Of a DNA stretch of 24,270 nucleotides, positions 1,046 through 24,270 are shown piece after piece. Numbering within the stretch: position 1 is the first letter of the stretch; every line of letters begins with the position of its first letter. A program made the position numbers and the translations under genes. The DNA is from a virus (lineage: Duplodnaviria > Heunggongvirae > Uroviricota > Caudoviricetes). Location of the stretch: the IMG/VR virus record IMGVR_UViG_2541047718_000009, one strand, 5' to 3'. Below the pieces are notes generated by a model that saw nothing but the letters and a program-made list of their open reading frames with translations, was not told the DNA's origin and did not search any database.

Positions 1046-1105
1046 TGAAAAATTAATCTGTTAATGAGTCCCACTCCGGTGGGATTTTTTATGTACGGAG
1101 TTTAT

Positions 1106-6103: not shown

Positions 6104-6106
6104 TCC

Positions 6107-7452: not shown

Positions 7453-7469
7453 AATTATGTGGTGTATTA

Positions 7470-7489
7470 TTAGGGGGAGGCCCCCCTAA
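7470..7489. terminator. GC-rich hairpin between convergent tfa and acyltransferase genes (putative bidirectional terminator)
   Basis: TTAGGGGG (7470-7477), loop AGGC, CCCCCTAA (7482-7489): a perfect 8-bp stem. No clean U-tract on either side. Confidence 0.4.
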
Positions 7490-7493
7490 TAAA

Positions 7494-8519: not shown

Positions 8520-8715
8520 TTGAGGCTTCTCATGATTAAAAGGTTCGTTATTAAAACCATTAATAATACTCTACTTACTTATCAAGTATCAACGTTTTTA
8601 TGTGTGGTTTTAATTAACAGAATGCAAGAATAAATAATAATATTCTGTTTGCGATTTTTTAAATAATTGCACTTACTACTCCTCAGTGCGAGGGAGAATT
8701 GAGGATGGAATTGGG

Positions 8716-8858
8716 GGCTCCGTCCAAAATTTACCCCTGAATAATGGGTGTAGGCCAGGCGATTAATTGCATCAGGCGTTCCTCGCCAGAAGGTGGCGAT
8801 CATCTATGATGTTGGTATATCGACACTGTATAAGAAGTTTCCGGTCGGAGATAAATGA
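8716..8858 (+). pseudogene. remnant of a Gin/Pin/Hin-family serine DNA invertase (C-terminal HTH only; frameshifted, catalytic domain absent)
   Basis: The frame ending at TGA 8856-8858 reads ARRLIASGVPRQKVAIIYDVGISTLYKKFPVGDK, closely matching the C-terminal DNA-binding end of Gin/Pin-type invertases as I recall them (...QVALIYDVALSTLYKK...). An upstream GG-rich stretch (about 8730-8750) is recognisable only across frameshifts, and no N-terminal catalytic domain is encoded in 8520-8715. Confidence 0.65.
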
Positions 8859-8918
8859 AACCGTAGCACGTCGTATGCAAGAAGATCGTGCTGCGGTTTA
8901 TGCTTATCACTTAAAGAC

Positions 8919-9788
<870 letters not shown>

Positions 9789-10094
9789 CTAATCCTTTGA
9801 ATTTACATAGTAAAAAAAGATACTTTTCCTCATAGTGTGAATTAATTTTATGTTTCGTTTGATGATTGGACCGGTCTCGAAAACCGTAGGCACGTAGTAT
9901 GCGTTAATTTATGAGCAAACTACTTGTCTGCTGTTTTTCTGTCATTAGTCGTATATAGAATGATTCTCTATGCCTAACAAAGCATCACTAGTGCTAGATT
10001 ACGTTGTAGTCACTGTTTAAATATCCAGACAAAACATTTCCTTCTGGGTTGAATGAGTGATAGAGTTTCACCCATTAGACCCCTTGGAGGAATT

Positions 10095-11528
10095 ATGTCT
10101 GAATTTGAAGTGTTGGCACAGCATCTGCTGAAGGAAGCCGAGGCGGAAGAAAAGCTGCGACAGGAAAATGATAAAAAGCTTATCGAGAAAGTGCTGGAAA
10201 TCTATGATCAGAAGTATGTGGCTGAATTACTGAGAAAAGTCGGAAAAAATGAGTGGAGCCGTGAAACCATTAACCGCTGGATTAATGGCAAGTGTTTACC
10301 AAAATCGTTGACGTCAGTAGAAGAGTCTCTTCTGCGTAAGATGCTACCAGAACCACCTGCAAACCATCCGGAATATGCTTTCCGCTTCATTGACTTATTT
10401 GCTGGAATTGGAGGGATACGAAAAGGTTTTGAGGCTATTGGAGGCCAGTGTGTTTTTACCAGTGAATGGAATAAAGATGCTGTGCGTACATACAAGGCCA
10501 ACTGGTTTAACGATGAACAGGTGCATAAATTCAATCTCGATATTCGGGAAGTCACGTTGAGTGATAAAACCGATGTATTGGAAACGGATGCTTATGCATA
10601 TATTGATGAGCATGTGCCGGATCATGATGTGCTTCTTGCGGGGTTCCCGTGCCAGCCATTTAGTCTTGCTGGTGTTAGTAAGAAAAACTCACTTGGCCGT
10701 GCGCATGGTTTTGAATGTGAAGCACAAGGAACACTTTTTTTTGACGTGGCACGTATTATACGAGCAAAAAAACCGGCAATTTTTGTGCTGGAAAATGTCA
10801 AAAATCTGAAGAGCCATGATAAGGGTAAAACTTTCAAAGTCATTATGGAGACCCTTGACGAGCTGGGCTACGAAGTTGCCGATGCTGCAGAAATGGGAAA
10901 AAACGATCCAAAGATTATCGATGGGAAGCATTTTTTGCCTCAGCATCGTGAACGCATTGTTCTGGTCGGATTTAGACGAGATCTGAATATTCACAAGGGG
11001 TTTACCTTGCGTGATATCAGTCGTTTTTATCCGGAACACCGCCCATCATTTGGTGAATTGCTGGAGCCTGTAGTCGACAGTAAATATATACTTACGCCAA
11101 AACTATGGGAGTACCTTTATAACTACGCCAAAAAGCATGCAGCCAAGGGGAATGGTTTTGGCTTTGGGTTGGTCAATCCTGAGAATAAGGAAAGCATTGC
11201 ACGCACACTTTCTGCCAGATATCACAAAGACGGATCAGAAATTCTTATTGATCGTGGTTGGGATATGGCAACGGGAGAGGCTGACTTTATGAATGAGAGT
11301 AATCAGGCTCGTCGACCACGCAGGCTGACTCCCCGAGAGTGCGCACGCCTTATGGGATTTGAAAAACCTGGAGGGAAACCATTCCGTATTCCGGTTTCAG
11401 ATACTCAGTCATATCGGCAGTTCGGTAACTCAGTTGTGGTGCCAGTATTTGAAGCTGTTGCCAGACTTCTGGAACCCTATATCCTCAAAGCTGTTTCTGC
11501 TGATGCTGGTAAGACTGGGCAGCCTTGA
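10095..11528 (+). CDS. DNA (cytosine-5) methyltransferase, Dcm / M.EcoRII-like
   Basis: C5-MTase motifs are present: [12 protein letters not shown] (motif I), [11 protein letters not shown] (motif IV, catalytic Cys), ENVKNL (motif VI), [10 protein letters not shown] (motif X). ATG 10095 is preceded by GGAGG at 10086-10090, giving a 477-aa product; the ORF track start at 10053 lacks an RBS. Confidence 0.9.
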
Positions 11529-11534
11529 GAACAC

Positions 11535-11557
11535 CTCCCGGCCTTTTAAGCCGGGAG
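11535..11557. terminator. hairpin between convergent methyltransferase and restriction genes
   Basis: CTCCCGGC (11535-11542), loop CTTTTAA, GCCGGGAG (11550-11557). Confidence 0.4.
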
Positions 11558-11562
11558 TCAGC

Positions 11563-12777
11563 CTATGATAGTTCAGCGTAAAGCTCTATCAGCTCAGTAA
11601 TGAATGCTCCGAGCGTTATTAATTCTTCTCTAACTGCTTCTGGGTATTTTTTATGTAAAGTTGATGGTACAACGAGTCTGACACCCGCATCTTTCATTTC
11701 TCGGTATTGTGCTGAAGAAACACCTTCTTGCAGTGTAAATAAATGTACCTGATGGATTTTATCTGCTTCATTCAGTATCTGACGCCAGCGATCTTTGCAG
11801 GTGGTCTTTACTGCCAGCATACGTAAGTTTTCTACAGGAAATTCAACGTTATGATATGCCTCTGCTGAAGGAAACAGGAAATCTGGTTTTTTATTACCTT
11901 CAGTAACTGCCTGAGTGGAGAAATGCCGTAGTCCGTGCTCGATAAAAAGCTTCTCTAGGTGAAGTTCAAGTGATTTGCCTGCCCTTGATTTACGTCGATT
12001 ACTGACAGAGTTGGCTAATGCAATAAACTCATCTACAGAATCGAATCCTTTCTTAATAATATCAAGAACATGTAATTCCTCGACGAGTAGAAAAATATCA
12101 TACTCGACACGCCGACGGTCAATCAGTTGCTCATCTGGATCCTTGGAGTTTTTAGCATAATGGCCAGCAGCATATTGAATAATTTCGTTTCCAGAAGGAA
12201 AACGCTTCTTCCAGTCTTCAGGAATAACATATTTATGATTTACTGGAGTTTGCTGAAGAGATAATCCGCCCAAAATTTGTCCGGCAGGGCCGGAAATTAG
12301 GGTTCCAGGTATGATTTCGCCAATAGCAGACTCGATGATATCCTCTTCATCGGGATTGACGCAGACCCATATATCTACCTCGGAACAGTCAGTGTTCTGT
12401 TCGTTTAACCTGAAAGCAAGAATTGTGAGAGCTCCTGTATTTTCAGGGTTCTGTAATGGACTTCCTCTCCCCCAGCGCGTAATTCTTTTTTCGTTTCGGG
12501 TCTTACCAAAATAACGGTTGTTGTAATAAATTGCGCGTGCTTGGGTATCAGGGCAATCATGGGATGATACATGCGCAGTAAGGAAGACTGAAGGGTTCAG
12601 TTCGCGAGTATGATTGATAGATGGAAAAAGCTTTTCAACGATATTTGAGGGGATATAAAGTCCGACCTGATGGCCACCTGTTGCGCCAGTGTCGTTTGCA
12701 GAAAGGCGTTTGATGTAGATAAAGTAATTCCCGCTTGCGATATCAAGCAGCCAGTTATGAAAAACCGACATATACAT
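11563..12777 (-). CDS. type II restriction endonuclease, EcoRII family (CCWGG-type)
   Basis: 404-aa product whose N-terminus (MSVFHNWLL..YIKRLSANDTGATGGHQVGLYIPS) matches my recollection of R.EcoRII. It is convergent with a Dcm/M.EcoRII-like methylase. Family assignment is by recall, not a search. Confidence 0.7.
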   Translation of the reverse strand: MYMSVFHNWLLDIASGNYFIYIKRLSANDTGATGGHQVGLYIPSNIVEKLFPSINHTRELNPSVFLTAHVSSHDCPDTQARAIYYNNRYFGKTRNEKRITRWGRGSPLQNPENTGALTILAFRLNEQNTDCSEVDIWVCVNPDEEDIIESAIGEIIPGTLISGPAGQILGGLSLQQTPVNHKYVIPEDWKKRFPSGNEIIQYAAGHYAKNSKDPDEQLIDRRRVEYDIFLLVEELHVLDIIKKGFDSVDEFIALANSVSNRRKSRAGKSLELHLEKLFIEHGLRHFSTQAVTEGNKKPDFLFPSAEAYHNVEFPVENLRMLAVKTTCKDRWRQILNEADKIHQVHLFTLQEGVSSAQYREMKDAGVRLVVPSTLHKKYPEAVREELITLGAFITELIELYAELS

Positions 12778-12858
12778 CCCTTTGTTAGCATACAGTCAGG
12801 GTTAACATTTTTCCATAGTTATAGATAAGCGGCTAGGAACTTAAGGGAAAAACAAAAA

Positions 12859-12880
12859 GCCCGCATAAGCGGGCTTTTGT
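12859..12880. terminator. bidirectional rho-independent terminator candidate
   Basis: GCCCGC (12859-12864), loop ATAA, GCGGGC (12869-12874), followed by TTTTGTG on the + strand and preceded by AAAAA (a U-tract on the - strand). A second perfect 14-nt palindrome GGAGCCGCGGCTCC follows at about 12889-12902. Confidence 0.5.
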
Positions 12881-13005
12881 GTCACTCGGGAGCCGCGGCT
12901 CCTTTGCGTATCCTTTTTTGTCTCCTCACCGTCTGGTCGGTGTCCTGCTGAGACTGCTAACTTCCTGTTTTTGTTGGTGTTGTCCTTACACCGTCCAATC
13001 ATGAT

Positions 13006-13028
13006 TGGTGGAGCTGGCGGAGTTTGAA
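13006..13028. repeat. distal att site of the P4-like element (direct repeat of the ssrA 3' end)
   Basis: TGGTGGAGCTGGCGG at 13006-13020 is identical to 23869-23883 (complement of the tmRNA 3' terminus ...CCGCCAGCUCCACCA), with AGTTTGAA versus GAGTTGAA continuing the similarity. A 14-nt perfect palindrome CCAATCATGATTGG overlaps its left edge (12995-13008). Confidence 0.7.
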
Positions 13029-13162
13029 TAAATATTGTATTGCTTTGATTTTTAATGATTTTATTTAATTTAGTTTTTGTGCGTATACTTAATCGTATAC
13101 CAATGGCTGTAAGTTAATGTGAAATGAAAGCGCATTTTTACTTGGATTGATGCTATATCGTA

Positions 13163-13468
13163 CAGGAAAAAAATTTTTTTTCGAAAGAACTGTTCACACT
13201 GTTCACCTTTCTTTTTTCTCCTTTTATTTCAGAGTGATAGGTGGTGAATAATGGGTGAAGGGTGAACATTCGATTCTTCACCTCCGGCATTCTGCCGGTG
13301 TGACTCATACCGGTGATTAATCCCCCGTACTGAAATCACTCAGGAAGAAAAAAGTTTTTTTTGATTTGATTGTTCACACTGTTCACCTTTCGTTTTTCTC
13401 TTTTAATTTCAGTATGATAACGGGTGAATATACGGTGAAGGGTGAACACTGGATTGTTCACCTTCGGG
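13163..13468. repeat. crr-like cis replication region: two ~125-bp direct repeats carrying TGTTCACC / GGTGAACA iterons
   Basis: Unit 1 is about 13163-13286 and unit 2 about 13343-13468, period 180 bp. Exact octamers TGTTCACC occur at 13200-13207, 13380-13387 and 13455-13462, and GGTGAACA at 13261-13268 and 13441-13448, with further one-mismatch variants. Located immediately 3' of the alpha gene, as in P4. Confidence 0.75.
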
Positions 13469-13480
13469 GGATGTCGGGAT

Positions 13481-13506
13481 AAAAAAAAGACCGGCAGATG
13501 CCGGTC
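13481..13506 (-). terminator. rho-independent terminator after alpha
   Basis: On the minus strand: hairpin GACCGGCATCTGCCGGTC (13489-13506) followed by eight U (13481-13488), 8 nt after the alpha stop codon. Confidence 0.7.
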
Positions 13507-13513
13507 AGGTGGG

Positions 13514-15847
13514 TCAGGTTGTTGCAGGGGCGTCACATTTTGGCAGCCAGTCGCCGTAGCTTTCCTCTTTCAGCGTCAGGTTGGTCTGTATCCCCTGTTT
13601 GGTATGGCGCTTCTCGTAATTCAGCCCGTATTCTTTCAGCATCACCGGTAGCCCCAGTCCGAACATTTTCAGACTGAGTACATTCCGGTAGCCGTTTGCC
13701 TCCATGTAGGCCAGATAGGCGTGATAGAGGTATTTACGGTAATTACGCGGGATGATACTGGCGTTCCCCATATACATGCCGCTGGTCTGCGGCAGGGTTT
13801 CCAGATAGCCGATAAAATCAAACGTCGGGTCGGCATCCCGTTTGATGTTCAGTGCCTCGTCTGAGTTCTGCTGGGACTGAAGCAGTGACCGGGCGAGCAT
13901 CGGGTCGCTGAACTTCTGCATCAGGTGACGCACGATGACCGCCAGCTCGCGGGTGATTTTGTCCTTAAGCTGCGGGTCGCGCTCCTGCGGGGCTATCTGT
14001 TCCGGGAAGTGAATAATCACCCGCCGGCGTGACACGCCGCCGCTGCGGTCGGTGAAGCGCATCGGGTTATTGTTCACGGCCAGAATCACCGCCGGGATGT
14101 GCGTGGAGTACGCATCCCGGTATTTCGGGTCAACGGACACTGCATCGCCGCCGGTGATGGCCTTGAGTCCGGCTCCGTCGCCGCTCCATTTTTCCTGGTC
14201 CGGCAGGCGTATCAGTGAGAAGCCAGTTAACGCGGCACGTTCACGCGGGGATTCCAGCGTCTCAATGGTGGCCGACGTGGCGTTATCCTCACCGGCCAGC
14301 AGGGTGGCTATTTCGGCCATGATACTTTTGCCGCTGCCGCCGGGACCGGTCACCTCCAGAAAGAGCTGCCAGTCGTAGCGGTTTGCCAGCACCATAAACA
14401 GTGCGGCCAGAATCACGTCGCGTTTTTCCGCACGACCACCGGCAGCACGGTCAAGCCAGCGCCAGAACGCGGGAGCGTGGGTTTCCAGCGTTTCACCGTC
14501 CACCGGCGGGGTGAAATCCACATCACACAGGGTACGCATCCAGTGTGACGGACTGTGCGGGTGGAACGTACCGTTCTGCGTGTCGAGCACGCCGTTACGA
14601 AAGCCAATCAGGCGGCGGGAGGGGGCTTCCTGCTGCGGAATAATCAGCTTCAGGGTGTCCACCACGGAGGCCACCTTCCCGGAGGAGAACGGCGCGCGCA
14701 GACGCTGAAACAGCCCGGCCACATCCCGGGCAAAGTCCTGTGGCGGCAGCACCTTCCAGACACCATTTTCATAGCGGGACAGAAGCTGGCCGTTGGCATC
14801 GACCGCGAGCGCCTCGCCGTAATGCTCATAGATACGCATGGCCTTTTCGCTGGTACTCATGGCGGAAAACTCCGCTTCGCTCATGGTGTCGAACGGGCTT
14901 TCAGCCGGTGGCCGGATGGCATCATAAATGGCCTTACGGGTGGCTTCCCCGCCGTACTGCGTGAAGGCATCATTCCAGTCACCGAAGACCGGCGGCAGGG
15001 CAACAACACCTTCACACGCATCTGCGGCTGCGGCGGCTTTTTTCTGGCCGTCACCGCTGAGGTCACGGTCAGCAGCAAGGACAATCTGACAGGCCGGATG
15101 CTTCTGCCGGGCAAGGCTGGACAGAGAAAGGAGATTCACGGAAGAAAGCGCCACCATCACCGTTTCACCGGTCAGGTGATGCACGGTAAGTGCGGTCGCG
15201 TATCCCTCCGCTATCCACAGACGTTTTCCGGCCTGATTCTGTCCTTCAAGGGTGTGACAGGTGCCCCTGACCTGTCCGCCTTTCAGGGTGCGCTTACGGC
15301 CGTCAGCACTGATTAACTGAAGGTTAACCAGTTCGCCGCTGTCGTCATACAGTGGCACCACAAGGTCACCAGCACGCCAGCTCACGCCACCGGCTCTGTG
15401 TGTGCCGGTCAGCATCCGGCATTCCCGGCCGGGAAAGCCCTTGCGGGTCAGGTAGGCGTTACCGGTTCCGGGACGGGTTTTCGCTATCAGGGTTTGTGCC
15501 AGTGCGGCGGCGTTCTTCCGGGCAGCGTCTGTTTCAGCACCGGCGGCGGCCGTCACTGCCGGGTCAGCCGGGGGCAGGCTGCCGGTCACGGCAGCCACCT
15601 TTGCGGCCGCGTCGGACGGGGAGACACCAAACACCTTTTCAACCAGTTTCAGGCCGTCACCGGCACCACACTGATTGCAGTACCAGGTGCCGCGCCCCTC
15701 CCTGTCATCAAAACGGAAGCGGTCACTCCCGCCACAGACCGGACAGGGCTGATGACGGTTTTTCAGCACCTGAATCCCCAGCGCCGGGAGAATACGCGGC
15801 CAGTGGCCGAGCGCATGGCTGACGGTGGCGGTTACGTTCATTTTCAT
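13514..15847 (-). CDS. alpha: P4 alpha-type primase-helicase (replication initiator)
   Basis: 777-aa product with an N-terminal zinc-binding CPVCGG...CNQCG motif and a primase/D5-type helicase arrangement; I recall P4 alpha as about the same length. AAGGAG lies 9 nt upstream of ATG 15847. Flanked by iteron regions. Confidence 0.85.
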   Translation of the reverse strand: MKMNVTATVSHALGHWPRILPALGIQVLKNRHQPCPVCGGSDRFRFDDREGRGTWYCNQCGAGDGLKLVEKVFGVSPSDAAAKVAAVTGSLPPADPAVTAAAGAETDAARKNAAALAQTLIAKTRPGTGNAYLTRKGFPGRECRMLTGTHRAGGVSWRAGDLVVPLYDDSGELVNLQLISADGRKRTLKGGQVRGTCHTLEGQNQAGKRLWIAEGYATALTVHHLTGETVMVALSSVNLLSLSSLARQKHPACQIVLAADRDLSGDGQKKAAAAADACEGVVALPPVFGDWNDAFTQYGGEATRKAIYDAIRPPAESPFDTMSEAEFSAMSTSEKAMRIYEHYGEALAVDANGQLLSRYENGVWKVLPPQDFARDVAGLFQRLRAPFSSGKVASVVDTLKLIIPQQEAPSRRLIGFRNGVLDTQNGTFHPHSPSHWMRTLCDVDFTPPVDGETLETHAPAFWRWLDRAAGGRAEKRDVILAALFMVLANRYDWQLFLEVTGPGGSGKSIMAEIATLLAGEDNATSATIETLESPRERAALTGFSLIRLPDQEKWSGDGAGLKAITGGDAVSVDPKYRDAYSTHIPAVILAVNNNPMRFTDRSGGVSRRRVIIHFPEQIAPQERDPQLKDKITRELAVIVRHLMQKFSDPMLARSLLQSQQNSDEALNIKRDADPTFDFIGYLETLPQTSGMYMGNASIIPRNYRKYLYHAYLAYMEANGYRNVLSLKMFGLGLPVMLKEYGLNYEKRHTKQGIQTNLTLKEESYGDWLPKCDAPATT

Positions 15848-15861
15848 GGTGTTGTTCTCCT

Positions 15862-16182
15862 TCAGTGCAGTACCGGCGCTTTTATGTGACGGGCACAGAG
15901 TTCATCCATCACAACCAGCCCGAGAAAGGACAGCGACGGCGCGGCCTTCAGGGGGCCGGATTCCATTAAATCTTCCAGCAGGGCACAGGCTATCTGACGC
16001 CCTTTTTCCTCACCGTGCTGGCGCAGATAAAAGCCTTCCAGCTCAGCGGCGATGGCCGCCTCCAGTGATTCAAGGGTGAGATGCGGGTAGCGGTGCTGAC
16101 GTTCGCACACGGTCAGCCAGGCACAGGCGACAGCACGACGGTAAAGGGCTGCGCGTAAGACGGGCGGTAAGGGTGTTTTCAT
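15862..16182 (-). CDS. hypothetical protein of the P4-like left operon (106 aa)
   Basis: GGAGG 6 nt upstream of ATG 16182; stop lies 14 nt before the alpha start. Function unknown. Confidence 0.6.
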
Positions 16183-16317
16183 TTGCTTTCCTCCCTGTGA
16201 CAGATGACTGCATTCCGTGCCGGTTGCATTAACTGATAAGGCATATCTGCGTCTCCTGAAGACGTGCGTATCCCTGCGCGAATACGCACATTTAATTTTT
16301 CGGGTGTCGTTTTTTAA

Positions 16318-16773
16318 TTACAGATAATTGCGGTAACTGTTATCCGGGGTGGTTTCCGGGTCAGGCTCCGTGCGGGGAATTTCCCGCCATTCCCGCGCCA
16401 CCGGTGCCGCCCGGCTGACCGGAACAGGGGCCTGCGGGTAAATATCCAGATATTTCTCCCGCCATTTCTGTAATTCCGGGTCTCCGGCCATTTCTTTCAG
16501 TACCGCATGCCGGTTTACGGGGCTGCGTTTAAACAGGTCAGGACGGTCACAGGTAAATTCCCGCAGAAAACGCCCCAGCGGGATGTCTGTGGTGCGCCCG
16601 TCAGCGAGGATACGCACAAGGATACTGAATTTACGGCGGTACGGGTTCCAGACAATGTCCGGGCAGCGGTACGGCATTTCCCACGGAATACCGTCTTCCA
16701 GAATGCCGACCACGGCCACATCGGGAAAACCGGCAGAACGGTAAATCTCACCGGGCTGGGGAAAATCAAACAT
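16318..16773 (-). CDS. hypothetical protein of the P4-like left operon (151 aa; P4 orf151-like by position and size)
   Basis: GGGGAG RBS upstream of ATG 16773; overlaps the stop of the upstream small gene. Confidence 0.6.
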   Translation of the reverse strand: MFDFPQPGEIYRSAGFPDVAVVGILEDGIPWEMPYRCPDIVWNPYRRKFSILVRILADGRTTDIPLGRFLREFTCDRPDLFKRSPVNRHAVLKEMAGDPELQKWREKYLDIYPQAPVPVSRAAPVAREWREIPRTEPDPETTPDNSYRNYL

Positions 16774-17053
16774 GCGTCCTGTCTCCCCGGTCTTTCTGCT
16801 GGGCGAGAAAATCGCGGCACAGGCCTTTGGCTTTCAGCTCATTCAGCACAAAATCAATATCTTCATTCAGGTAGCTGAAAATATGCGGAATGTAGAGCTG
16901 ATGCAGGCCGGAGAGTTCACGGTGAATCAAATCCCCCCCAACAAACTGGGATACGGCGCTGGCGCGGTTGAGCTTATGGTAAGCCTCAATGCTGAGGTGT
17001 TCACGGGCGTCATGACGTGCTGAGACGGTCTGAGGGGCTTTTTTATTACGCAC
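16766..17053 (-). CDS. small left-operon protein (95 aa), possible epsilon-like derepressor (assigned by position only)
   Basis: GTG 17053 is preceded by GGAGG with 6-nt spacing. The longer ORF-track version (to 17209) adds a Cys/Pro-rich N-terminus without an RBS and is judged spurious. Confidence 0.4.
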
Positions 17054-17243
17054 GGGACACCTCCACCACCGGCAGACGGGCAGCAAGGGAGAGCACATAG
17101 TCACGGACAAGGGAACGGCGGGCACTGCGTTCATCACCGGCGACGGTGCGAAGCATACAGATACGGGGATGACGGTCTGCGCGACGGACAGCCGCAAACA
17201 CAAAGACAAATTCAGGGTGTGAAGGGGTAAGGGTTGTAGCCAT
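17046..17243 (-). CDS. small protein (65 aa), unknown function
   Basis: ATG 17243 is preceded by GGAGG at 8-nt spacing; its stop overlaps the start of the 95-aa gene, suggesting coupling. It is the C-terminal part of ORF-track entry 17046..17690, whose upstream portion lacks support. Confidence 0.4.
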
Positions 17244-17641
17244 GATGGCAGCCTCCGTTAGATAGCAGGTTACGCTATCGCCGGAGTTTCCACGCTCGAT
17301 GGCGATAGCCCAGACGGGGGTGGAAATACCGGCTCTAACGGATACCGGCCAGCCCGGAGGCTGCCCCGCCTGAGCTACCATTGACTCTGCGGCATAATGA
17401 GCGGACGCGGGCAGGATGCACGGAGTGCCATCTGCTCGACTGACCACACACCACACCATAATCTGGCGCTCTGTGGCGTTGATTGCGACACAAAAAAAGA
17501 CGCATGGCGCGTCATATGTCGCCGTTAGATTGCTCGGGTTTCCACGCCCGGCTGCCGATTTTGCGACAGCGGAAAAACTATATCCGCAAATGCCGGAAAA
17601 AGGCAAGCCAGAAAAAGGGACTTTTTGCAGAACAGGCATCA

Positions 17642-17908
17642 TCATGCGTCGTACCCCCGTTTGCGTCCGGCAATGCGTCCGGCCATCCATGCGGTGACTT
17701 CAGAGTGCAGCCAGGCCACATTTTTACCGCCAAGACTCACCTGCGGCGGAAATTCCCCCTTACGGATGAGTTCGTAGATGGTCGAGCGTGACAGGCCGCA
17801 CAGGTGCATCACTTCCGGCAGACGTAAAAAACGCTCCTGCGTGATGTCCGGCAGCGGCATCAGTGGCGTCACAGGGGCGGGAGACGGGGAAGAAAAAACA
17901 GCTTGCAT
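17642..17908 (-). CDS. vis: AlpA / P4 Vis-family small HTH regulator (excision and transcription control)
   Basis: 88-aa product with the AlpA-type signature [54 protein letters not shown] 7 nt upstream. First gene of the leftward operon next to ori. Confidence 0.75.
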
Positions 17909-18188
17909 CGGGCTACCTCGTTAATGTCCATACAGCACCGGATAAGTCCGTCCGGCTTCGGGTAGCGCTTTATTTTGTGAATATTTTCAGCAGACGCAAC
18001 AGGGGGGATTTGTTCCGGCAGCCTTACAATGGCTGTGCATTTTTTTGTACATCAGCGCCAGATAGCTTTAAAACGCTCTGGAAGGAGCTGGAAAAAATTA
18101 TAGTGAAATACAAATTGTTTTTTCTTATTTATTTCAGTGAATTAATAAAAATAAAAAGTAATAAACAGCACAAAAAGCCCATCAACGG

Positions 18189-18291
18189 GTGAACAGTGGT
18201 GAACAGACGGTGAACAGTCATTACTGCGATTGTTCACCCTTTAACTTACTGTATTACTTATCTTTTTTATTAAGGTGAACAGAGGTGAACA
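18189..18291. promoter_or_regulatory. P4-type origin of replication (ori): iteron cluster around an AT-rich spacer
   Basis: GGTGAACA at 18189-18196, 18198-18205, 18209-18216, 18274-18281 and 18284-18291; TGTTCACC at 18231-18238; AT-rich stretch at 18240-18273. About 4.9 kb from the crr repeats, consistent with my recollection of P4 ori-crr spacing of about 4.5 kb. Confidence 0.75.
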
Positions 18292-18370
18292 GTAAAATAT
18301 AAAAAAACAAACAGTAAGCCGGTTTTTCCTGCGACCTTTTCCTGGCTTGCCGGTCTGAGGATGAGTCTCC

Positions 18371-18388
18371 TGTGTCAGGGCTGGCACA
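18371..18388 (+). promoter_or_regulatory. late-promoter activator site (TGT-N12-ACA dyad) upstream of sid
   Basis: TGT (18371-18373), 12 nt, ACA (18386-18388), centred about 80 nt upstream of the sid ATG. This matches the Ogr/Delta-dependent late promoter architecture of P2/P4. Confidence 0.55.
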
Positions 18389-18460
18389 TCTGCAATGCGT
18401 CGTGTTGTTGTCCGGTGTACGTCACAATTTTCTTAACCTGAAGTGACGAGGAGCCGGAAA

Positions 18461-19195
18461 ATGTCTGACAACACCATCCCTGAATATCTGCAACCCGCAC
18501 TGGCACAACTGGAAAAGGCCAGAGTCGCTCATCTTGAGAACGCCCGCCTGATGGATGAGACCGTCACGGCCATTGAACGGGCAGAGCAGGAAAAAAATGC
18601 GCTGGCGCAGGCCGACGGAAACGACGCTGACGACTGGCGCACGGCCTTTCGTGCAGCCGGTGGTGTCCTGAGCGACGAGCTGAAACAGCGCCACATTGAG
18701 CGCGTGGCACGCCGGGAGCTGGTACAGGAATATGACAATCTGGCCGTGGTGCTGAATTTTGAACGCGAACGCCTGAAAGGGGCGTGTGACAGCACGGCCA
18801 CCGCCTACCGGAAGGCACATCATCACCTTCTGAGTCTGTATGCAGAGCATGAGCTGGAACACGCCCTGAATGAAACCTGTGAGGCGCTTGTCCGGGCAAT
18901 GCATCTGAGCATCCTGGTACAGGAAAATCCGCTCGCCAACACCACCGGCCATCAGGGCTACGTCGCGCCGGAAAAGGCTGTCATGCAGCAGGTGAAATCA
19001 TCGCTGGAACAGAAAATAAAACAGATGCAAATCAGCCTCACCGGCGAGCCGGTTCTCCGGCTGACCGGACTGTCAGCGGCAACACTCCCGCACATGGATT
19101 ATGAGGTGGCAGGCACACCGGCACAGCGCAAGGTGTGGCAGGACAAAATAGACCAGCAGGGAGCAGAGCTTAAGGCCAGAGGGCTGCTGTCATGA
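18461..19195 (+). CDS. sid: Sid, capsid size-determination external scaffold protein
   Basis: 244-aa product from ATG 18461 (GAGGAG 7 nt upstream), MSDNTIPEYLQPALAQLEKA..., which I recognise as P4 Sid. The ORF track begins 6 codons earlier. Confidence 0.85.
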   Translation: MSDNTIPEYLQPALAQLEKARVAHLENARLMDETVTAIERAEQEKNALAQADGNDADDWRTAFRAAGGVLSDELKQRHIERVARRELVQEYDNLAVVLNFERERLKGACDSTATAYRKAHHHLLSLYAEHELEHALNETCEALVRAMHLSILVQENPLANTTGHQGYVAPEKAVMQQVKSSLEQKIKQMQISLTGEPVLRLTGLSAATLPHMDYEVAGTPAQRKVWQDKIDQQGAELKARGLLS

Positions 19196-19692
19196 TTTAC
19201 TGTCCGTCGTGTGGACATGTTGCTCACACCCGTCGCGCACATTTCATGGACGATGGCACCAAGATAATGATTGCACAGTGCCGGAATATTTATTGCTCTG
19301 CGACATTTGAAGCGAGTGAAAGCTTTTTCTCTGACTGTAAAGATTCAGGAATGGAATACATTTCAGGCAAACAGAGATACCGCGATTCACTGACGTCAGC
19401 CTCCGGCAGTATGAAACGCCCGAAAAGAATGCTTGTTACCGGATATTGTTGTCGGAGATGTAAAGGCCTTGCACTGTCAAGAACATCGCGGCGTCTGTCT
19501 CAGGAAGTCACCGAGCGTTTTTATGTGTGCACGGATCCGGGCTGTGGTCTGGTGTTTAAAACGCTTCAGACCATCAACCGCTTCATTGTCCGCCCGGTCA
19601 CGCCGGACGAACTGGCAGAACGCCTGCATGAAAAACAGGAACTGCCGCCAGTACGCTTAAAAACACAATCATATTCGCTGCGTCTGGAATGA
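19192..19692 (+). CDS. delta: Delta, Ogr-family zinc-finger late transcription activator (tandem Ogr-like halves)
   Basis: 166-aa product with two CxxC...C...C units (MIYCPSCGHVAHTRR...CRNIYCSATF and ...CRRCKG...CTDPGCGLVF). ATGA overlap with the sid stop. Confidence 0.85.
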   Translation: MIYCPSCGHVAHTRRAHFMDDGTKIMIAQCRNIYCSATFEASESFFSDCKDSGMEYISGKQRYRDSLTSASGSMKRPKRMLVTGYCCRRCKGLALSRTSRRLSQEVTERFYVCTDPGCGLVFKTLQTINRFIVRPVTPDELAERLHEKQELPPVRLKTQSYSLRLE

Positions 19693-19765
19693 GGGCTGCC
19701 GGTTAACACCGGCCGTCGCCGCACACCGTATTTTTATTCTTCAGCATGATGAGAAAGAGATAACG

Positions 19766-20338
19766 ATGGAAAGCACAGCCTTACAGCAGGCCTTTGACAC
19801 CTGTCAGAATAACAAAGCGGCATGGCTGCAACGCAAAAATGAGCTGGCAGCGGCCGAACAGGAATATCTGCGGCTTCTGTCAGGAGAAGGCAGAAACGTC
19901 AGTCGCCTGGACGAATTACGCAATATTATCGAAGTCAGAAAATGGCAGGTGAATCAGGCCGCCGGTCGTTATATTCGTTCGCATGAAGCCGTTCAGCACA
20001 TCAGCATCCGCGACCGGCTGAATGATTTTATGCAGCAGCACGGCACAGCACTGGCGGCGGCACTGGCACCGGAGCTGATGGGCTACAGTGAGCTGACGGC
20101 CATTGCCCGAAACTGTGCCATACAGCGTGCCACAGATGCCCTGCGTGAAGCCCTTCTGTCCTGGCTTGCGAAGGGGGAAAAAATTAATTATTCCGCACAG
20201 GATAGCGACATTTTAACGACCATCGGATTCAGGCCTGACGCGGCTTCGGTGGATGACAGCCGTGAAAAATTCACTCCTGCGCAGAACATGATTTTTTCGC
20301 GTAAAAGTGCACAACTGGCATCACGTCAGTCTGTGTAA
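19766..20338 (+). CDS. psu: Psu, polarity suppression / capsid decoration protein
   Basis: 190-aa product in the third position of the sid-delta-psu operon, with size and sequence style of P4 Psu. Confidence 0.8.
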   Translation: MESTALQQAFDTCQNNKAAWLQRKNELAAAEQEYLRLLSGEGRNVSRLDELRNIIEVRKWQVNQAAGRYIRSHEAVQHISIRDRLNDFMQQHGTALAAALAPELMGYSELTAIARNCAIQRATDALREALLSWLAKGEKINYSAQDSDILTTIGFRPDAASVDDSREKFTPAQNMIFSRKSAQLASRQSV

Positions 20339-20374
20339 AATTCCCCGAAAATCCGCCCGTTTTTACTGAAAAAA

Positions 20375-20402
20375 GCCATGCATCGATAAGGTGCATGGCT
20401 TT
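20375..20402 (+). terminator. terminator hairpin after psu
   Basis: GCCATGCA (20375-20382), 9-nt loop, TGCATGGC (20392-20399), then TTT; lies 37 nt after the psu stop. Confidence 0.55.
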
Positions 20403-20502
20403 GCATGCGTTTTCCTGCCTCATTTTCTGCAGACCGCACCATTCCCGGCGCGGTCTGAGCGTGTCAGTGCAACTGCATTAAAACCGCCCCGCAAAGCGGG
20501 CG

Positions 20503-20521
20503 GGCGAGGCGGGGAAAGCAC
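20503..20521. other. cos site (P2/P4-type 19-nt cohesive-end sequence)
   Basis: GGCGAGGCGGGGAAAGCAC at 20503-20521 matches the P2/P4 cohesive-end sequence as I recall it, and lies between psu and the int-proximal cargo as in P4. Confidence 0.7.
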
Positions 20522-20558
20522 TGCGCGCTGACATGATAATTATTATTTTACAGCGCGC

Positions 20559-20588
20559 TTGATTTGCACTTTATGGTACACATATGAT
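20559..20588 (+). promoter_or_regulatory. candidate sigma70 promoter for the hotspot helicase gene
   Basis: TTGATT (20559-20564), 18-nt spacer, TATGAT (20583-20588); AGGA RBS at 20646-20649, 7 nt before ATG 20657. Confidence 0.45.
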
Positions 20589-20656
20589 TGTGTTGAGAAT
20601 TCAGATGTTGTTCAACGTGAACGCAGTTTGTACTTTATTTAAAAAAGGATGTTTAC

Positions 20657-22465
20657 ATGGAAAATTGTTTTAATTTTAAGCCTAATTTAGCAAACCTAAG
20701 AGATTGCCAGAAAGAGGCGTATTTAACGGTTAGAGATTACTTTGCAGATCCCGCTAATACAGAAAATCATATTTTAGTACAGTTGCCTACGGGGACAGGA
20801 AAGTCAGCGGTAATTGCTATATCGCCTTATGAAGTAGCTAAAGGTAAAGTTTTGGTTCTAACACCAAACTTGACACTTGCAAATCAAATTGAGCAAGATA
20901 TTGATATATTCGAAAATCCCACTAGTAATATATATAAGAAATTAGGGATTTTTTCTGAAGACTTTTATACAGAAAGCGAGGCTTATCCTCTGCGGTTAAA
21001 TGATAGTGTTAGTTCGAATGATATAGATGAGCATCAAATAATTATAGCTAACTATCAACAGTTAAATGACGTTGAAAAATGGTTTAAGGGTAAAGAAGAA
21101 CAGGTTGATTTAATAATTATAGACGAGGCTCATCACCAAAAAGCTAAAACTTATCAGGAAGTCATTGGCTTTTTCCCTCAGGCTAAAATTTTAAGCCTTA
21201 CTGCAACTCCTTTTCGTTCTGATGGTAAGCCTCTAGATGGCAAGGTTGTTTATACTTATCATTTTTCAGACGCCATAAGAAATGGATACATTAGGAATAT
21301 TAAGGTCTGTGATATAGCCCCAGAGTCTATTTCGTTAGTAGGTTTGTTTAATGATAAGGATGGTAAAGAATACTCTCTCGAAGATATTCTTGAGTTAAAA
21401 GAAGAAGCATGGTTTAGACGTGGAATCGCCTTATCACAAGATTGTTGCGACAGCATAGCAAGTAAATCTTTTGAAAAGCTTTTGGAGCTAAGAAATTCAA
21501 ATCCAAATGATACTCACCAAATTATTGCAGCAGCAATATCAAAACGACATGCTAGAGAATTTGTTAAGCCAGCATTTGAACGTCTGGGCTTGAAAGTCGG
21601 CTTGGTTAGCACTGATGAGAAAAATAATGAACATACTATACAGAAGTTAAAGCAAGGAAAAATCGATGTGATAGTCAATATTGGTATGCTTGGTGAGGGA
21701 TTTGACCATAAGCCTTTAGGTGTGGCAGCTATTTTCAGACCTTTTGCTTCTTTGAATCCATATATCCAATTTTTAGGAAGAGTTATTAGAGAAAATGGTA
21801 GTACAAAAAATTGCTGGGTTGTTTCTCATTTAGGGTTGAACCAAATATCTAGATTCAATGAGTTTAAATTGTTTGATGCTGATGATAAGGAGATTCTTGA
21901 AAAGCTTTTGTCTGGAAAGAATACTGAAGGGGTAGGTGGTGAATCTTCTTTTGTCGATATACAAGACAGAAACCCAATTGAAGTTACAATTAAAGAAATT
22001 GGTGATAGTCTTGTGGAGTTTAACGAAGATTATGTAGATCTTTCAAAAGTGGATAAAGTTGAAAGAGCGATTAAAAGGCTTAATGAGGGCGAGGCTAGAG
22101 AATTATTGACTAGACTCGGTCTTGATGCAAATTCAATAAATGCTGTTACGACCCGCAAAAAAAGAGTTAAACCTATAAATAAGAAAAAAGCTGCGCAATC
22201 TAGTTTAAATGAAGCGTCTAAATCTATTGCTGTGGATATACTCTCCGAATTAAATTTGAAGATGTACGATAGAAACTTTAACCCATTGAAAACGAATTTT
22301 GTCTGGGTTAAATCAAAAATTGATAAAGAAATAAACAAGAAGCTAGGGATTAAGCAAGCCGAAAGAAAAAAAGTGACAAATGCTCAGTATGATGAATTTT
22401 CTAAAAGTGGTGAATTGAATTTAATAAGAGAAAACTGCTTGGAGTATTTTAAAAGCAAGGTTTGA
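20657..22465 (+). CDS. SF2 DEAH-box helicase-domain protein (ResIII/HsdR-like motor) with lysine-rich C-terminal extension; candidate anti-phage defense protein
   Basis: Helicase motifs in order: Q-like DCQKEA, motif I LPTGTGKS, Ia LVLTPNL, II IIIDEAHH (DEAH at about 21123-21134), III SLTATP, V MLGEGFD, VI QFLGRVIR. The C-terminal ~200 aa are unrecognised and K-rich. The gene is strongly AT-rich against a GC-richer P4 backbone. Confidence 0.75.
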   Translation: MENCFNFKPNLANLRDCQKEAYLTVRDYFADPANTENHILVQLPTGTGKSAVIAISPYEVAKGKVLVLTPNLTLANQIEQDIDIFENPTSNIYKKLGIFSEDFYTESEAYPLRLNDSVSSNDIDEHQIIIANYQQLNDVEKWFKGKEEQVDLIIIDEAHHQKAKTYQEVIGFFPQAKILSLTATPFRSDGKPLDGKVVYTYHFSDAIRNGYIRNIKVCDIAPESISLVGLFNDKDGKEYSLEDILELKEEAWFRRGIALSQDCCDSIASKSFEKLLELRNSNPNDTHQIIAAAISKRHAREFVKPAFERLGLKVGLVSTDEKNNEHTIQKLKQGKIDVIVNIGMLGEGFDHKPLGVAAIFRPFASLNPYIQFLGRVIRENGSTKNCWVVSHLGLNQISRFNEFKLFDADDKEILEKLLSGKNTEGVGGESSFVDIQDRNPIEVTIKEIGDSLVEFNEDYVDLSKVDKVERAIKRLNEGEARELLTRLGLDANSINAVTTRKKRVKPINKKKAAQSSLNEASKSIAVDILSELNLKMYDRNFNPLKTNFVWVKSKIDKEINKKLGIKQAERKKVTNAQYDEFSKSGELNLIRENCLEYFKSKV

Positions 22466-22496
22466 GTTTCGGGCCTCTTTAATGGGGCCCTTCGGC

Positions 22497-23729
22497 TTAA
22501 CTGTGTACTTTATTACCCCACCATTGCATGAGTTCTTCTCTTTGTTTTATATAGGTCGAGCGATTGTAAGCTCGCCTAATTTCATTTTTATCAACATGGG
22601 CTAAAGCAGCTTCAATGGCGTCCGCGTTGAAACCGGCTTCATTCATTGCTGTACTCGCAATAGAACGGAGGCCATGAGCGACTAGTTTTCCGCCAAAACC
22701 AATTCGTTTTAAAGCAGCATTCGCAGTTTGGCTATTCATTGGCTGTTTAGGGTCATTTCTACTAGGAAATATATGTTCACGATGTGCACTAATAGGTTTC
22801 ATTACTTCTAAAATATCTAACGCCTGAGACGATAAAGGAACTATATGTTCTCTTTTGGCCTTCATTCTTTCTGCTGGAATAACCCATATTTTTGCATCAA
22901 GATCAATCTCAGCCCAACGAGCTCCTGAGGCCTCCGATGGACGTACAAGGGTGAGGAGTTGCCACTCGATAAGACAGCGAGTCGGAATAGACAAATTTGA
23001 CATAACGAGAGAACGCATTAGCTTAGGTAATTCTTCTGGCCGCAGTGTCGGCATGTTTTGCTTTTTGGGCTTCTCAAAGGCCATTCCAACCCCGGAAGCT
23101 GGATTGGCATCGATCAGCCCTGTATTTACAGCGAAGATCATTATCTCGTTAATGCGTTGCGCCAGTCGACGTACAGTCTCTAGCGCCCCACGAGCTTTGA
23201 CTGGCTCAAGCGCTTCAACCAATGTTCGGGCTTTGATTTGCTGAATGGGGAGCTCACCGACGGCAGGGAATACATCTTTCTCCAATGAGCGCCAAATGTC
23301 TTTTGCGTAATCAGGGGTAACGCTTTTGCTTTTGAGCTGAAACCAATTAGTGGCAACCGTTGAGAAAATACTGCTCTGAGCGATTTGCTGTTGTTCCTCT
23401 GCAACTTTGGCCTGAATTTGAGGGTCGATTCCATTAGCCAATAAAGCAAGATAATCCGCTCTTAACCTCCGGGCATCTGCAAGTGAAAGAGCGGGGAAAG
23501 CTCCTAGCCCCATCATTGTCCGCTGCTTTGTCGTTGGGCGTTGATAACGGAAACGCCAGAGTTTTTTCCCGTTTGTTTTCACTATCAGGAAAAGCCCCTC
23601 GCCATCATGCAGTGTTAGATCTTTCTCTAACGCTTTAGCTCGCAGAATTTCAGTGTTGGTCAGGGGGCGTGTCGTTCTTGCCACTGTGGCCGCTCCTTCA
23701 TTAATTGGTATACGCGTTTGGGTAAACAT
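22497..23729 (-). CDS. int: tyrosine site-specific integrase (P4 / CP4-57 IntA type)
   Basis: 410-aa product with the catalytic signature near the C-terminus (HGLRSIAST ... RRAYNRSTYIKQR, the H-x-x-R and catalytic Y). Directly adjacent to, and co-oriented with, the ssrA 3' end. Confidence 0.9.
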   Translation of the reverse strand: MFTQTRIPINEGAATVARTTRPLTNTEILRAKALEKDLTLHDGEGLFLIVKTNGKKLWRFRYQRPTTKQRTMMGLGAFPALSLADARRLRADYLALLANGIDPQIQAKVAEEQQQIAQSSIFSTVATNWFQLKSKSVTPDYAKDIWRSLEKDVFPAVGELPIQQIKARTLVEALEPVKARGALETVRRLAQRINEIMIFAVNTGLIDANPASGVGMAFEKPKKQNMPTLRPEELPKLMRSLVMSNLSIPTRCLIEWQLLTLVRPSEASGARWAEIDLDAKIWVIPAERMKAKREHIVPLSSQALDILEVMKPISAHREHIFPSRNDPKQPMNSQTANAALKRIGFGGKLVAHGLRSIASTAMNEAGFNADAIEAALAHVDKNEIRRAYNRSTYIKQREELMQWWGNKVHS

Positions 23730-23798
23730 CCTACCGTATACCTAAACGTATACCAATAATCACTGGATTTAGCTGGATATCCTCGGACAACGGTAGAC

Positions 23799-23833
23799 AC
23801 AAAAAAGCCCGCAGAGCTTGTGCCATGCGGGCT
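23799..23833 (-). terminator. rho-independent terminator downstream of ssrA
   Basis: On the minus strand: stem AGCCCGCA / TGCGGGCT (23806-23813 / 23826-23833) followed by a U-run (complement of 23799-23806), about 36 nt after the tmRNA 3' end. Confidence 0.6.
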
Positions 23834-23868
23834 TTCAGGATTTCTCCGGACGTATCCGGAAGAGCAAG

Positions 23869-24231
23869 TGGTGGAGCTGGCGGGAGTTGAACCCGCGTCC
23901 GAAATTCCTACATCCTCGGTACTACATGCTTAGTCAGTCTTTACATTCGCTTGCCAGCTGCGGACGGACACGCCACTAACAAACTAGCCTGATTAAGTTT
24001 TAACGCTTCAACCCCAGGCAGGGCTTCCACGCGATCTCTTTTGGGTTTGACCTCTCTTGATCCCCGTCCTAAGAGCGGAGGCTAGGGAGAGAGGGCTCTA
24101 AGCAGGTTATTAAGCTGCTAAAGCGTAGTTTTCGTCGTTTGCGACTATTTTTTGCGGCTTTTTACGAGGCCAACCGCCCCTCGGCATGCACCTTGGGTTT
24201 CGCAAATCCCGTCGAATCCAGAATCAGCCCC
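23869..24231 (-). ncRNA. ssrA: tmRNA (SsrA), complete
   Basis: The reverse complement of 23869-24231 reads GGGGCTGATTCTGGATTCGACGGG ... GCAAACGACGAAAACTACGCTTTAGCAGCTTAA (tag ANDENYALAA) ... GGTTCAACTCCCGCCAGCTCCACCA. It is 363 nt and matches E. coli ssrA as I recall it. A TATACT -10 element sits upstream at 24246-24251 on the minus strand. Confidence 0.95.
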
Positions 24232-24270
24232 AATGTGTAACGGTAAGTATACCAGATTCATGAGTGCCAT

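Follow-up and report, generated by a model that had tools for sequence, protein, structure and literature searches.

A P4-family satellite, intact-looking by sequence, integrated at the 3′ end of ssrA

Does the segment that abuts ssrA in this viral record make up a complete P4-like satellite, and does it keep the parts that a P2-type helper would need to mobilize it? Phage P4 itself integrates into the tRNA-Leu gene leuX. We analyzed a window of 24,270 nucleotides (the whole stretch of DNA, to which all positions below refer), in which a sequence-only reading had placed a complete P4-like satellite at ssrA rather than at a tRNA-Leu gene. We concluded that positions 13021 to 23883 very probably represent an integrated satellite of the P4 family that looks intact by sequence.

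The insertion site carries the first part of this argument. We found that ssrA (23869 to 24231, minus strand) is intact: it was called by ARAGORN and matched Rfam RF00023 over its full length with 295.8 bits, and it is 100% identical to the ssrA gene of Escherichia coli IAI39. Its last 15 nt (23869 to 23883) form the proximal att core, and a 15-bp copy of the same 3′ end forms the distal att core at 13006 to 13020. These two exact copies of TGGTGGAGCTGGCGG, the only ones in the window, bound an element of 10,863 bp. With up to two mismatches allowed, the expected number of matches to the repeat is 0.04, and none of 100 shuffles gave as many as two. Imperfect similarity lengthens the repeat to 23 nt (13006 to 13028 and 23869 to 23891). 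The K-12 counterpart of the distal copy is the pseudo-ssrA (psaA) at the far end of CP4-57.

We then joined window positions 12854 to 13020 to 23884 to 24100 as the predicted empty site and found this sequence unbroken and at 100% identity in numerous E. coli genomes; of 5,426 genomes, 2,569 hold a single stretch that spans at least 80% of the joined sequence. In IAI39, both flanks are joined directly at a single copy of the repeat, and for this reason we take TGGTGGAGCTGGCGG to be the recombination junction, as had been proposed. Window positions 1 to 13028 align with 99.97% identity to positions 1148 to 14175 of the IAI39 locus (L004), and positions 23869 to 24270 align with 100% identity to positions 14153 to 14554. 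These alignments share nothing but the 23-nt att stretch; the insertion is therefore 10,863 bp long, and its boundaries stand as first given. The core was duplicated and the gene was restored, as with integrases of the IntA/CP4-57 type, so that the claim of an ssrA 3′ end target in place of tRNA-Leu was borne out. Just downstream of the ssrA 3′ end, the element carries a terminator-like hairpin (23805 to 23838, minus strand). A terminator scan gave the stem from 23819 to 23805, and we read the extension to 23838 from the sequence. A homologous hairpin occupies the same place in CP4-57.

The left flank bears on how much of the window belongs to the element. There, an IS3 element interrupts a tape-measure gene, and everything upstream of that gene has been lost. 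This neighbor had been described as a co-resident prophage with a Mu/e14-like rather than a P2-type tail. Its baseplate is indeed of the Mu/e14 type and it would be unable to act as a helper, but it is a truncated remnant and not a co-resident prophage. Next to the distal att copy lies an open reading frame (11563 to 12777) that is paired with a Dcm-type methyltransferase. We considered it as a second integrase, which would have made a tandem ssrA element, and rejected this: it is R.EcoRII, with 810 bits to PDB 1NA6. Since these regions are adjacent, and since ssrA is a known hotspot where multiple elements accumulate (PMC3603311), it could be argued that the 13006 to 13020 repeat is not the junction and that the P4-like genes sit within a larger composite ssrA island together with the tail genes and the restriction system. 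We give this reading almost no chance of being correct. IAI39 has the whole left region, with the same remnant, beside an ssrA without an insertion, and the alignment breaks precisely at the repeat; we rejected the composite island on the strength of this empty site. Moreover, positions 12854 to 13005 are backbone sequence, which K-12 shares and carries beyond CP4-57, the presumed second integrase is a restriction enzyme, and sister elements are flanked at this side by ypjA or glaH.

Between these junctions, the core of the element is that of P4. We aligned positions 13168 to 20502 (crr to cos) with phage P4 over 7,336 positions (about 7.3 kb) and found 97.8% identity, with only three indels, each of a single base and none inside a gene. 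The homology begins at 13168, which corresponds to P4 position 4291, where crr begins in the P4 annotation. The genes alpha, cnr, orf151, epsilon, vis, sid, delta, and psu each keep their full length and differ from P4 by 0 to 9 amino acid changes. Together these eight genes have 78 nucleotide changes and only 19 amino acid changes, which is the pattern expected under purifying selection. A point substitution could disable a protein and yet leave no obvious lesion. In the alignment to P4, we found no inactivating lesion in alpha, sid, delta, psu, epsilon, vis, or cnr. The features follow the order previously described, namely, att, crr, alpha, the left-operon genes, vis, ori, sid-delta-psu, cos, cargo, int, and att. 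All seven components of the Type A class of Moura de Sousa and Rocha (int, psu, delta, sid, alpA, epsilon/ash, and alpha) are present at full length, and their canonical order of int, (cargo), psu-delta-sid, alpA, epsilon, alpha, and att is kept, collinear with P4 opened at att. Thus, the proposal of a complete P4-type satellite held, including for sid, delta, psu, and alpha, the genes in which lesions would have told against it.

The replication functions are those of an alpha-dependent replicon. The cis replication region, crr (13168 to 13467, plus strand), was assigned by its repeat family and P4 homology and contains two 120-bp direct repeats (13168 to 13287 and 13348 to 13467) with type 1 iterons (TGTTCACC). 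alpha (13514 to 15847, minus strand) encodes a primase-helicase of 777 amino acids, 768 of which are identical in P4; it has no internal stop and matches Pfam Zn_Ribbon_Prim, Toprim_3, D5_N, DUF5906, and Pox_D5. The copy number control gene cnr, or ORF106 (15862 to 16182, minus strand; Pfam DUF5375), encodes a product identical to that of P4 at 106 of 106 residues. In ori, the type 1 iterons, which are copies of GGTGAACAG at 18188 to 18292, are identical to P4 positions 9310 to 9413; the type 2 repeat patch (18016 to 18135) is strongly diverged from P4, and it alone has diverged.

The remaining genes of the minus strand are ORF151 (16318 to 16773; 149 of 151 residues identical to P4), epsilon (16766 to 17053), and vis (17642 to 17908). 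epsilon encodes the 95-amino-acid helper derepression protein, labeled "derepression protein" in RefSeq, with 94 residues identical to P4. vis encodes an 88-amino-acid AlpA-family regulator and excision factor that matches P4 ORF88/Vis at 87 residues and Pfam Phage_AlpA at 7.3e-21. On the plus strand, sid (18461 to 19195) encodes the 244-amino-acid capsid size-determination scaffold (242 residues identical to P4 Sid), delta (19192 to 19692) the 166-amino-acid late-gene transactivator (163 identical), and psu (19766 to 20338) the 190-amino-acid polarity suppression and capsid decoration protein (189 identical; Pfam Psu, 1.3e-88). Delta has two stretches that match Pfam Ogr_Delta, and the three changes, read from the sequence, all lie outside the CxxC pairs. 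cos was present as had been claimed: the 19-nt cohesive end GGCGAGGCGGGGAAAGCAC (20503 to 20521, plus strand) matches, base for base, the 19 nt with which the linear P4 record opens, and its left flank runs on continuously from the right end of P4. This is a P2-type cos; positions 20464 to 20530 are 95.5% identical to P2 DNA.

The immunity region is also of the P4 type. An Ash/Icd-like open reading frame (17046 to 17645, minus strand), identified by Pfam Phage_ASH (1.6e-28), NCBIfam phage_ICD_like, and RefSeq, overlaps it. The cI immunity RNA, which includes seqB (17298 to 17385, minus strand), matched the Rfam C4 antisense RNA with 76.2 bits, and the PLE transcript leader, which contains seqA, the target of cI RNA (17493 to 17570, minus strand), matched Rfam isrK with 72.5 bits. 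We found that seqA, seqB, and seqC differ from those of P4 by changes that compensate each other, those in seqA being complementary to those in seqB, so that the complementarity of cI RNA to seqA and seqC is kept. The predicted energy of the seqA duplex was about −50 kcal/mol for cognate pairs and −37 and −39 kcal/mol for P4-by-window pairs; the duplex prediction for seqC discriminated more weakly. The compensated changes imply continued selection on regulation. They also suggest that the element would be heteroimmune to P4.

From cos to att, the DNA is not that of P4 but a different, swapped module, with a one-gene cargo and an IntA-type integrase with its own arm sites. int (22497 to 23684, minus strand) encodes 395 amino acids from the GTG start in RefSeq, and the frame stays open to 23729. 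By Pfam, NCBIfam, and alignment, the product is an IntA/CP4-57-type tyrosine integrase: it contains Arm-DNA-bind_3, Phage_int_M, and Phage_integrase, scored 593.9 bits against NCBIfam PRK09692 (cutoff, 434), is 61% identical to IntA of CP4-57 and 35.5% identical to P4 Int, and keeps the R, H-x-x-R, H, and Y positions of tyrosine recombinases. It is predicted to catalyze integration and excision at the ssrA 3′ end. On the alpha side, the presumed arm sites for Int are two tandem 12-bp repeats, CGTATACTTAAT and CGTATACCAATG (13082 to 13104, plus strand), recognized as repeats and by the P4 layout. On the int side (23704 to 23757), an inverted copy at 23704 to 23714 is accompanied by two tandem copies at 23735 to 23757. 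The 11-mer CGTATACCAAT occurs exactly three times, each time in the att arms. The attP arm repeats annotated in P4 are laid out in the same way but have another sequence. Int would probably bind at the repeats found here. The int-side arrangement is common to P4, K-12 CP4-57, and an element of Pantoea ananatis, with GGATTT and CGGAC boxes downstream. That Vis is of the P4 type and Int and att are not counts against an active element. The conserved boxes beside the arm sites suggest that Vis could cooperate with this Int and att, and excision by Int and Vis may follow.

Taken with what is established for P4, these parts suggest the following cycle. The circle was probably inserted by recombination of the attP core, which corresponds to the final 15 nt of ssrA, with the 3′ end of that gene. 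The ssrA 3′ end was thereby rebuilt unchanged, an element-borne terminator came to lie behind it, and the far junction was left with the 15-bp copy. cI RNA acting on its seqA and seqC targets would provide immunity, and alpha acting with the iterons at ori and crr would provide replication. Epsilon would derepress a P2-type helper and delta would switch on its late genes; Sid would shrink the helper capsid, Psu would decorate it, and the P2/P4 cos would permit packaging by the helper terminase. Mobilization by a P2-type helper is thus predicted from the intact parts.

The element could instead be a cryptic, immobile remnant like CP4-57, kept for its cargo or by chance, with excision, replication, and packaging all lost. 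The diverged type 2 patch of ori would fit this, as would the decay of the neighboring prophage. We consider such a remnant improbable. The core genes are without frameshift, stop, or deletion and their substitutions are mostly synonymous, cos and the iterons are intact, and both att copies are perfect. The compensated changes in the immunity region speak for regulation that is still under selection, and unrelated strains carry nearly identical copies whose flanks differ. An intact satellite remains by far the better account of the locus.

What the cargo does is a separate question. The variable hotspot between cos and int (20531 to 22505, with limits set by comparison with loci L014 and L015) contains one gene (20657 to 22465, plus strand), which encodes a 602-amino-acid SF2 helicase (WP_021513175; Pfam ResIII, DEAD, and Helicase_C). 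Rousset et al. 2022 list this protein in Table S1 as a "ResIII/Helicase_C" locus; it is not among the systems that they tested. We searched for it as a known defense system with PADLOC, NCBIfam, and PDB sequences and obtained only generic helicase-module matches. In PADLOC, these were partial matches (E values of about 1e-16) to the helicase modules of PbeA and of a SauUSI-type type IV enzyme, in which the N-terminal part of the profiles is missing. No PADLOC-DB 2.0 system model was matched at full length, and partner genes are absent. Foldseek searches with the AlphaFold model (pLDDT, 76.7) returned only SF2 motors, and the fold resembles the RadD, XPB, and HsdR motors. For residues 460 to 602, a conserved helical C-terminal domain, Foldseek found no match among solved structures. 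Neither Pfam nor PADLOC revealed a nuclease or other effector domain. The family keeps 45 to 60% identity across distant phyla, and the gene accompanies the ssrA integrase in P4-like satellites of both E. coli and Pantoea.

We tentatively suggest, at somewhat less than even odds, that the cargo is an undescribed stand-alone defense or counterdefense module built on a RadD/XPB-like SF2 helicase. It sits in the P4 hotspot, where the cargo tested so far is mostly anti-phage (PMC9122126), and the same place holds PARIS or a restriction enzyme in sister elements. Two distant homologues, from two other phyla, belong to restriction-modification operons or neighbor them. These observations, together with the ability of P4 to replicate without such a helicase, argue against a cargo that works for the satellite, whether in replication, in recombination, or in counterdefense against host restriction, rather than in host anti-phage defense. 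A satellite-serving role would agree with the likeness to the DNA repair helicases RadD and XPB and the lack of a detectable nuclease or effector domain, and family members in other phyla are found on mobile elements, with methyltransferases (one of them fused to ParB) next to them and serine recombinases nearby. We find such a role rather unlikely.

Nothing about this arrangement is unusual. At least 80% of the element, both junctions included, was found in 294 of 5,426 complete E. coli genomes, and in two carriers that we inspected, it lies at ssrA with PARIS or an Mrr-type nuclease replacing the helicase. It is thus frequent in E. coli, and it is already catalogued. Earlier papers describe P4-like satellites in which integrases are exchanged and a hotspot lies between psu and int (PMC9122126, PMC8628076, PMC13586616). 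Such satellites are well known and a published table already lists this locus, which therefore carries little weight as a discovery: the satellite itself is not novel, and the finding is correct but ordinary. Its use is as a clean worked example, a near-P4 core with a natural isogenic empty site in IAI39. The pair suits questions about Vis with a swapped integrase, cI RNA heteroimmunity to P4, and the role of the helicase cargo.

Compared with P4 (NC_001609/X51522; 11,624 bp against 10,863 bp here), the element shares gene order from crr to cos, near-identical proteins, type 1 iterons, cos, and the attP architecture, with tandem arm repeats on both sides and an inverted one at the start of int. 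It differs in Int, in an att core that is the ssrA 3′ end, in a single helicase gene in place of the nonessential gop-beta-cII region, in the compensated seqA, seqB, and seqC, and in the type 2 repeat patch of ori. CP4-57 (E. coli K-12; IntA and AlpA) shares the ssrA 3′ end target, the pseudo-ssrA at the far junction, the related integrase, an AlpA/Vis-family regulator, the terminator after ssrA, and a similar arm site layout. In contrast, it is 22 kb long, lacks sid, delta, psu, and alpha in the K-12 annotation, and is unrelated to the element outside int, att, and alpA. In P. ananatis (L008), a P4-like element beside smpB and the ssrA 3′ end has the same helicase-int-ssrA module (76.5% nucleotide identity over 3.6 kb; helicase, 82%, and int, 84% at the amino acid level). 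Its alpha, cnr, ash, and alpA are present in a core of about 65 to 71% nucleotide identity, but its hijack genes, in the arrangement psu-delta-(274-amino-acid open reading frame), are much more distant from P4. Set against the E. coli P4-like satellites with a psu-int defense hotspot (Rousset et al. 2022; Moura de Sousa and Rocha 2022), the element shows nothing different in kind: it has the same seven components, in the same order, with its cargo, the variable part, directly after cos.

We found a full-length ssrA gene (tmRNA) on the minus strand at 23869-24231 (ARAGORN; Rfam tmRNA, 295.8 bits). The reverse complement of its last 15 nt, TGGTGGAGCTGGCGG, has two exact copies in the window, at 13006-13020 and 23869-23883. 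When up to two mismatches were allowed, 0.04 matches were expected, and no shuffle out of 100 reached two. With imperfect similarity, the repeat reaches 23 nt. We fused positions 12854-13020 to 23884-24100 as the predicted empty site and searched for it in complete E. coli genomes. Many strains carry it in one piece at 100% identity, and at least 80% of the query was covered in one place in 2,569 of 5,426 genomes. E. coli IAI39 matches the window at 99.97% identity over 1-13028 and at 100% over 23869-24270, and these two alignments share only the 23-nt att stretch. The element is therefore a clean insertion of 10,863 bp whose ends are those proposed by the sequence-only reading. That reading had taken the 13006-13020 repeat as the recombination junction; the IAI39 alignments meet there, and the fused site is common in E. 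coli, so the repeat is the junction. The observation of a P4-like satellite at ssrA is confirmed. IAI39 is a natural isogenic control for the empty ssrA. Positions 12854-13029 match K-12 at the far end of CP4-57, and the match takes in the annotated pseudo-ssrA psaA.

Inside the element, a terminator-like hairpin follows ssrA at a distance of about 30 nt, as in CP4-57 (minus strand; stem at 23819-23805 from a terminator scan, extension to 23838 read from the sequence). It displaces the native ssrA terminator in the backbone (12878-12855, minus strand), which is about 130 nt downstream of ssrA in the empty site.

From crr to cos, the element is essentially P4. Window 13168-20502 is 97.8% identical to P4 (NC_001609, positions 4291-11624) over 7,336 aligned positions, with three single-base indels, none inside a gene. 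Identical residues number 768/777 for alpha, 106/106 for cnr, 149/151 for ORF151, 94/95 for epsilon, 87/88 for vis, 242/244 for sid, 163/166 for delta, and 189/190 for psu. All eight are free of internal stops. Taken together, they differ from P4 at 78 nucleotides yet at only 19 amino acids, as would be expected under purifying selection, and the three changes in delta all fall outside the CxxC pairs. Both 120-bp crr repeats are there, as are the type-1 iterons of ori. The 19-nt cohesive end of cos, GGCGAGGCGGGGAAAGCAC (20503-20521), is continuous with the P4 right end, and the cos flank is 95.5% identical to P2. These data support the interpretation of a complete P4-like satellite; an inactivating lesion in sid, delta, psu, or alpha would have refuted it, and none was found.

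Identity to P4 falls to about 60% in the ori type-2 repeat patch at 18016-18135, against about 99% in its flanks. Of the roughly 160 differences across the shared 7.3 kb, about 41 fall in this patch, and the adjoining type-1 iterons are unchanged.

The immunity region encodes a cI RNA (C4 family, Rfam) at 17298-17385, with seqA at 17543-17520, seqB at 17345-17320, and seqC at 17293-17255. We found that two blocks of seqB are altered relative to P4, CCUGUGAA to CCGUUAGA and UUCUCAC to UUUCCAC, and that seqA and seqC carry exactly complementary changes. With seqA, cognate pairs are predicted to form duplexes of about -50 kcal/mol, against -37 and -39 for mixed window/P4 pairs; seqC discriminates more weakly. 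Because the changes are compensated and the predicted energies favor cognate pairs, the sequence suggests that the immunity specificity differs from that of P4. Strain 100181 has the same seqB allele as the element, and strain 2547 has neither this allele nor that of P4.

The leader of the P4 PLE transcript (17493-17570, minus strand) matches Rfam isrK at 72.5 bits. isrK, a Salmonella island sRNA family, may represent the seqA leader found in immunity regions of the P4 type.

P4 homology ends about 27 bp past cos and restarts only at crr. The stretch between contains the cargo gene, the integrase, and the att arms. The tyrosine integrase (int, 22497-23684) has arm-binding, central, and catalytic domains, and its R, H-x-x-R, H, and Y positions are conserved when it is aligned with P4 Int, IntA, and the Pantoea enzyme. 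Its identity is 61% with K-12 IntA against 35.5% with P4 Int, and it scores 593.9 bits on NCBIfam PRK09692 (cutoff, 434). The 11-mer CGTATACCAAT has three exact copies in the window, all within the att arms. Tandem 12-bp pairs occupy 13082-13104 and 23735-23757, and a copy in inverted orientation lies at 23704-23714, immediately upstream of int. P4 attP has the same annotated arm-repeat layout but a different repeat sequence. Downstream of the tandem pair, GGATTT and CGGAC boxes are common to P4, the element, the Pantoea relative, and CP4-57; they are candidate sites for an AlpA/Vis-family excision factor.

The cargo gene (20657-22465) encodes a 602-residue SF2 helicase, WP_021513175. Rousset et al. 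2022 list this protein in Table S1 as a P4 hotspot locus, "ResIII/Helicase_C," and it is absent from the systems tested there. PADLOC matches were only partial and fell on helicase modules, those of PbeA and of a SauUSI-type type IV enzyme. The top PDB sequence match was SauUSI (7clg), and the NCBIfam match to RadD was subthreshold. The family is large, with members of about 600 residues sharing 45 to 60% full-length identity in very distant taxa. In Pantoea ananatis, a P4-like element adjoining smpB and the ssrA 3' end carries a helicase 82% identical and an integrase 84% identical to ours, and the helicase-int-ssrA module is 76.5% identical in nucleotides over 3.6 kb. Since this module is common to Pantoea and the integrase region (22506-24270) is only about 87% identical in nucleotides to E. 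coli sister elements at ssrA (L014 and L015), the helicase and this integrase allele appear to travel together and to be exchanged as one block.

Homologues in other phyla, 53 to 54% identical, lie directly after a DNA methyltransferase-HinP1I fusion or are flanked by hsdS and hsdR within a type I restriction operon (distant loci L005, 6246-9830, and L006, 5223-12934). Three further loci (L010, L011, and L013) place homologues in mobile-element contexts near methyltransferases and serine recombinases. An AlphaFold model (pLDDT, 76.7) resembles the RadD, XPB, and HsdR motors; a structure search with it returned no match for the helical C-terminal domain and revealed no nuclease domain. Position and neighbors make a defense role plausible, and the helicase could also serve counterdefense or DNA metabolism.

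To the left (1-12853), an IS3 fragment is followed by a tape-measure gene whose N terminus is missing (215-1045), then by Mu/e14-type baseplate and tail-fiber genes, and finally by accessory genes. An identical remnant adjoins the empty ssrA in IAI39. The tail type given by the sequence-only reading thus holds, but its coresident prophage is a remnant, which, judged from its genes, could not serve as a helper. Its distal end (7494-12777) is a predicted small defense cluster of an acyltransferase (7494-8519), a PD-T4-3 GIY-YIG protein (8919-9743; PADLOC, 2.7e-140), a Dcm-type methyltransferase (10053-11528), and R.EcoRII (11563-12777; 810 bits to PDB 1NA6).

The life cycle established for P4 can be carried over by homology; we observed the parts and their intactness and infer every activity. 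Int would recombine attP with the ssrA 3' end. In lysogeny, the cI RNA would keep the replication operon silent by pairing with seqA and seqC in the PLE transcript. With a P2-type helper present, epsilon would derepress the helper, delta would switch on its late genes, Sid would impose a small capsid, Psu would decorate it, and the helper terminase would package from cos. Vis and Int would jointly excise the element.

Previous work demonstrated that a large fraction of E. coli genomes contain P4-like satellites, that these carry a psu-int hotspot of antiviral systems and often exchange integrases, and that P2 and P4 use about 30 chromosomal spots in E. coli (PMC9122126, PMC8628076, PMC13586616). 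ssrA is a known integration hotspot (PMC3603311). No paper in the literature collection searched was found to single out near-P4 cores at ssrA. Some part of the element was matched in 2,533 of 5,426 complete E. coli genomes, and in 294 the coverage was at least 80% and included both junctions. Strains 100181 and 2547 carry the same satellite at ssrA, 98.1% identical from 12854 to about 20530, with ypjA and glaH as far-side neighbors. In place of the helicase, they have PARIS-type genes (AAA ATPase and DUF4435) or an Mrr-type nuclease, and comparison with them set the variable hotspot at 20531-22505. Sister cores at ssrA are 98% identical despite the divergence of the integrase region. The arrangement is catalogued and frequent, and we therefore consider a near-P4 core at ssrA to be already known.
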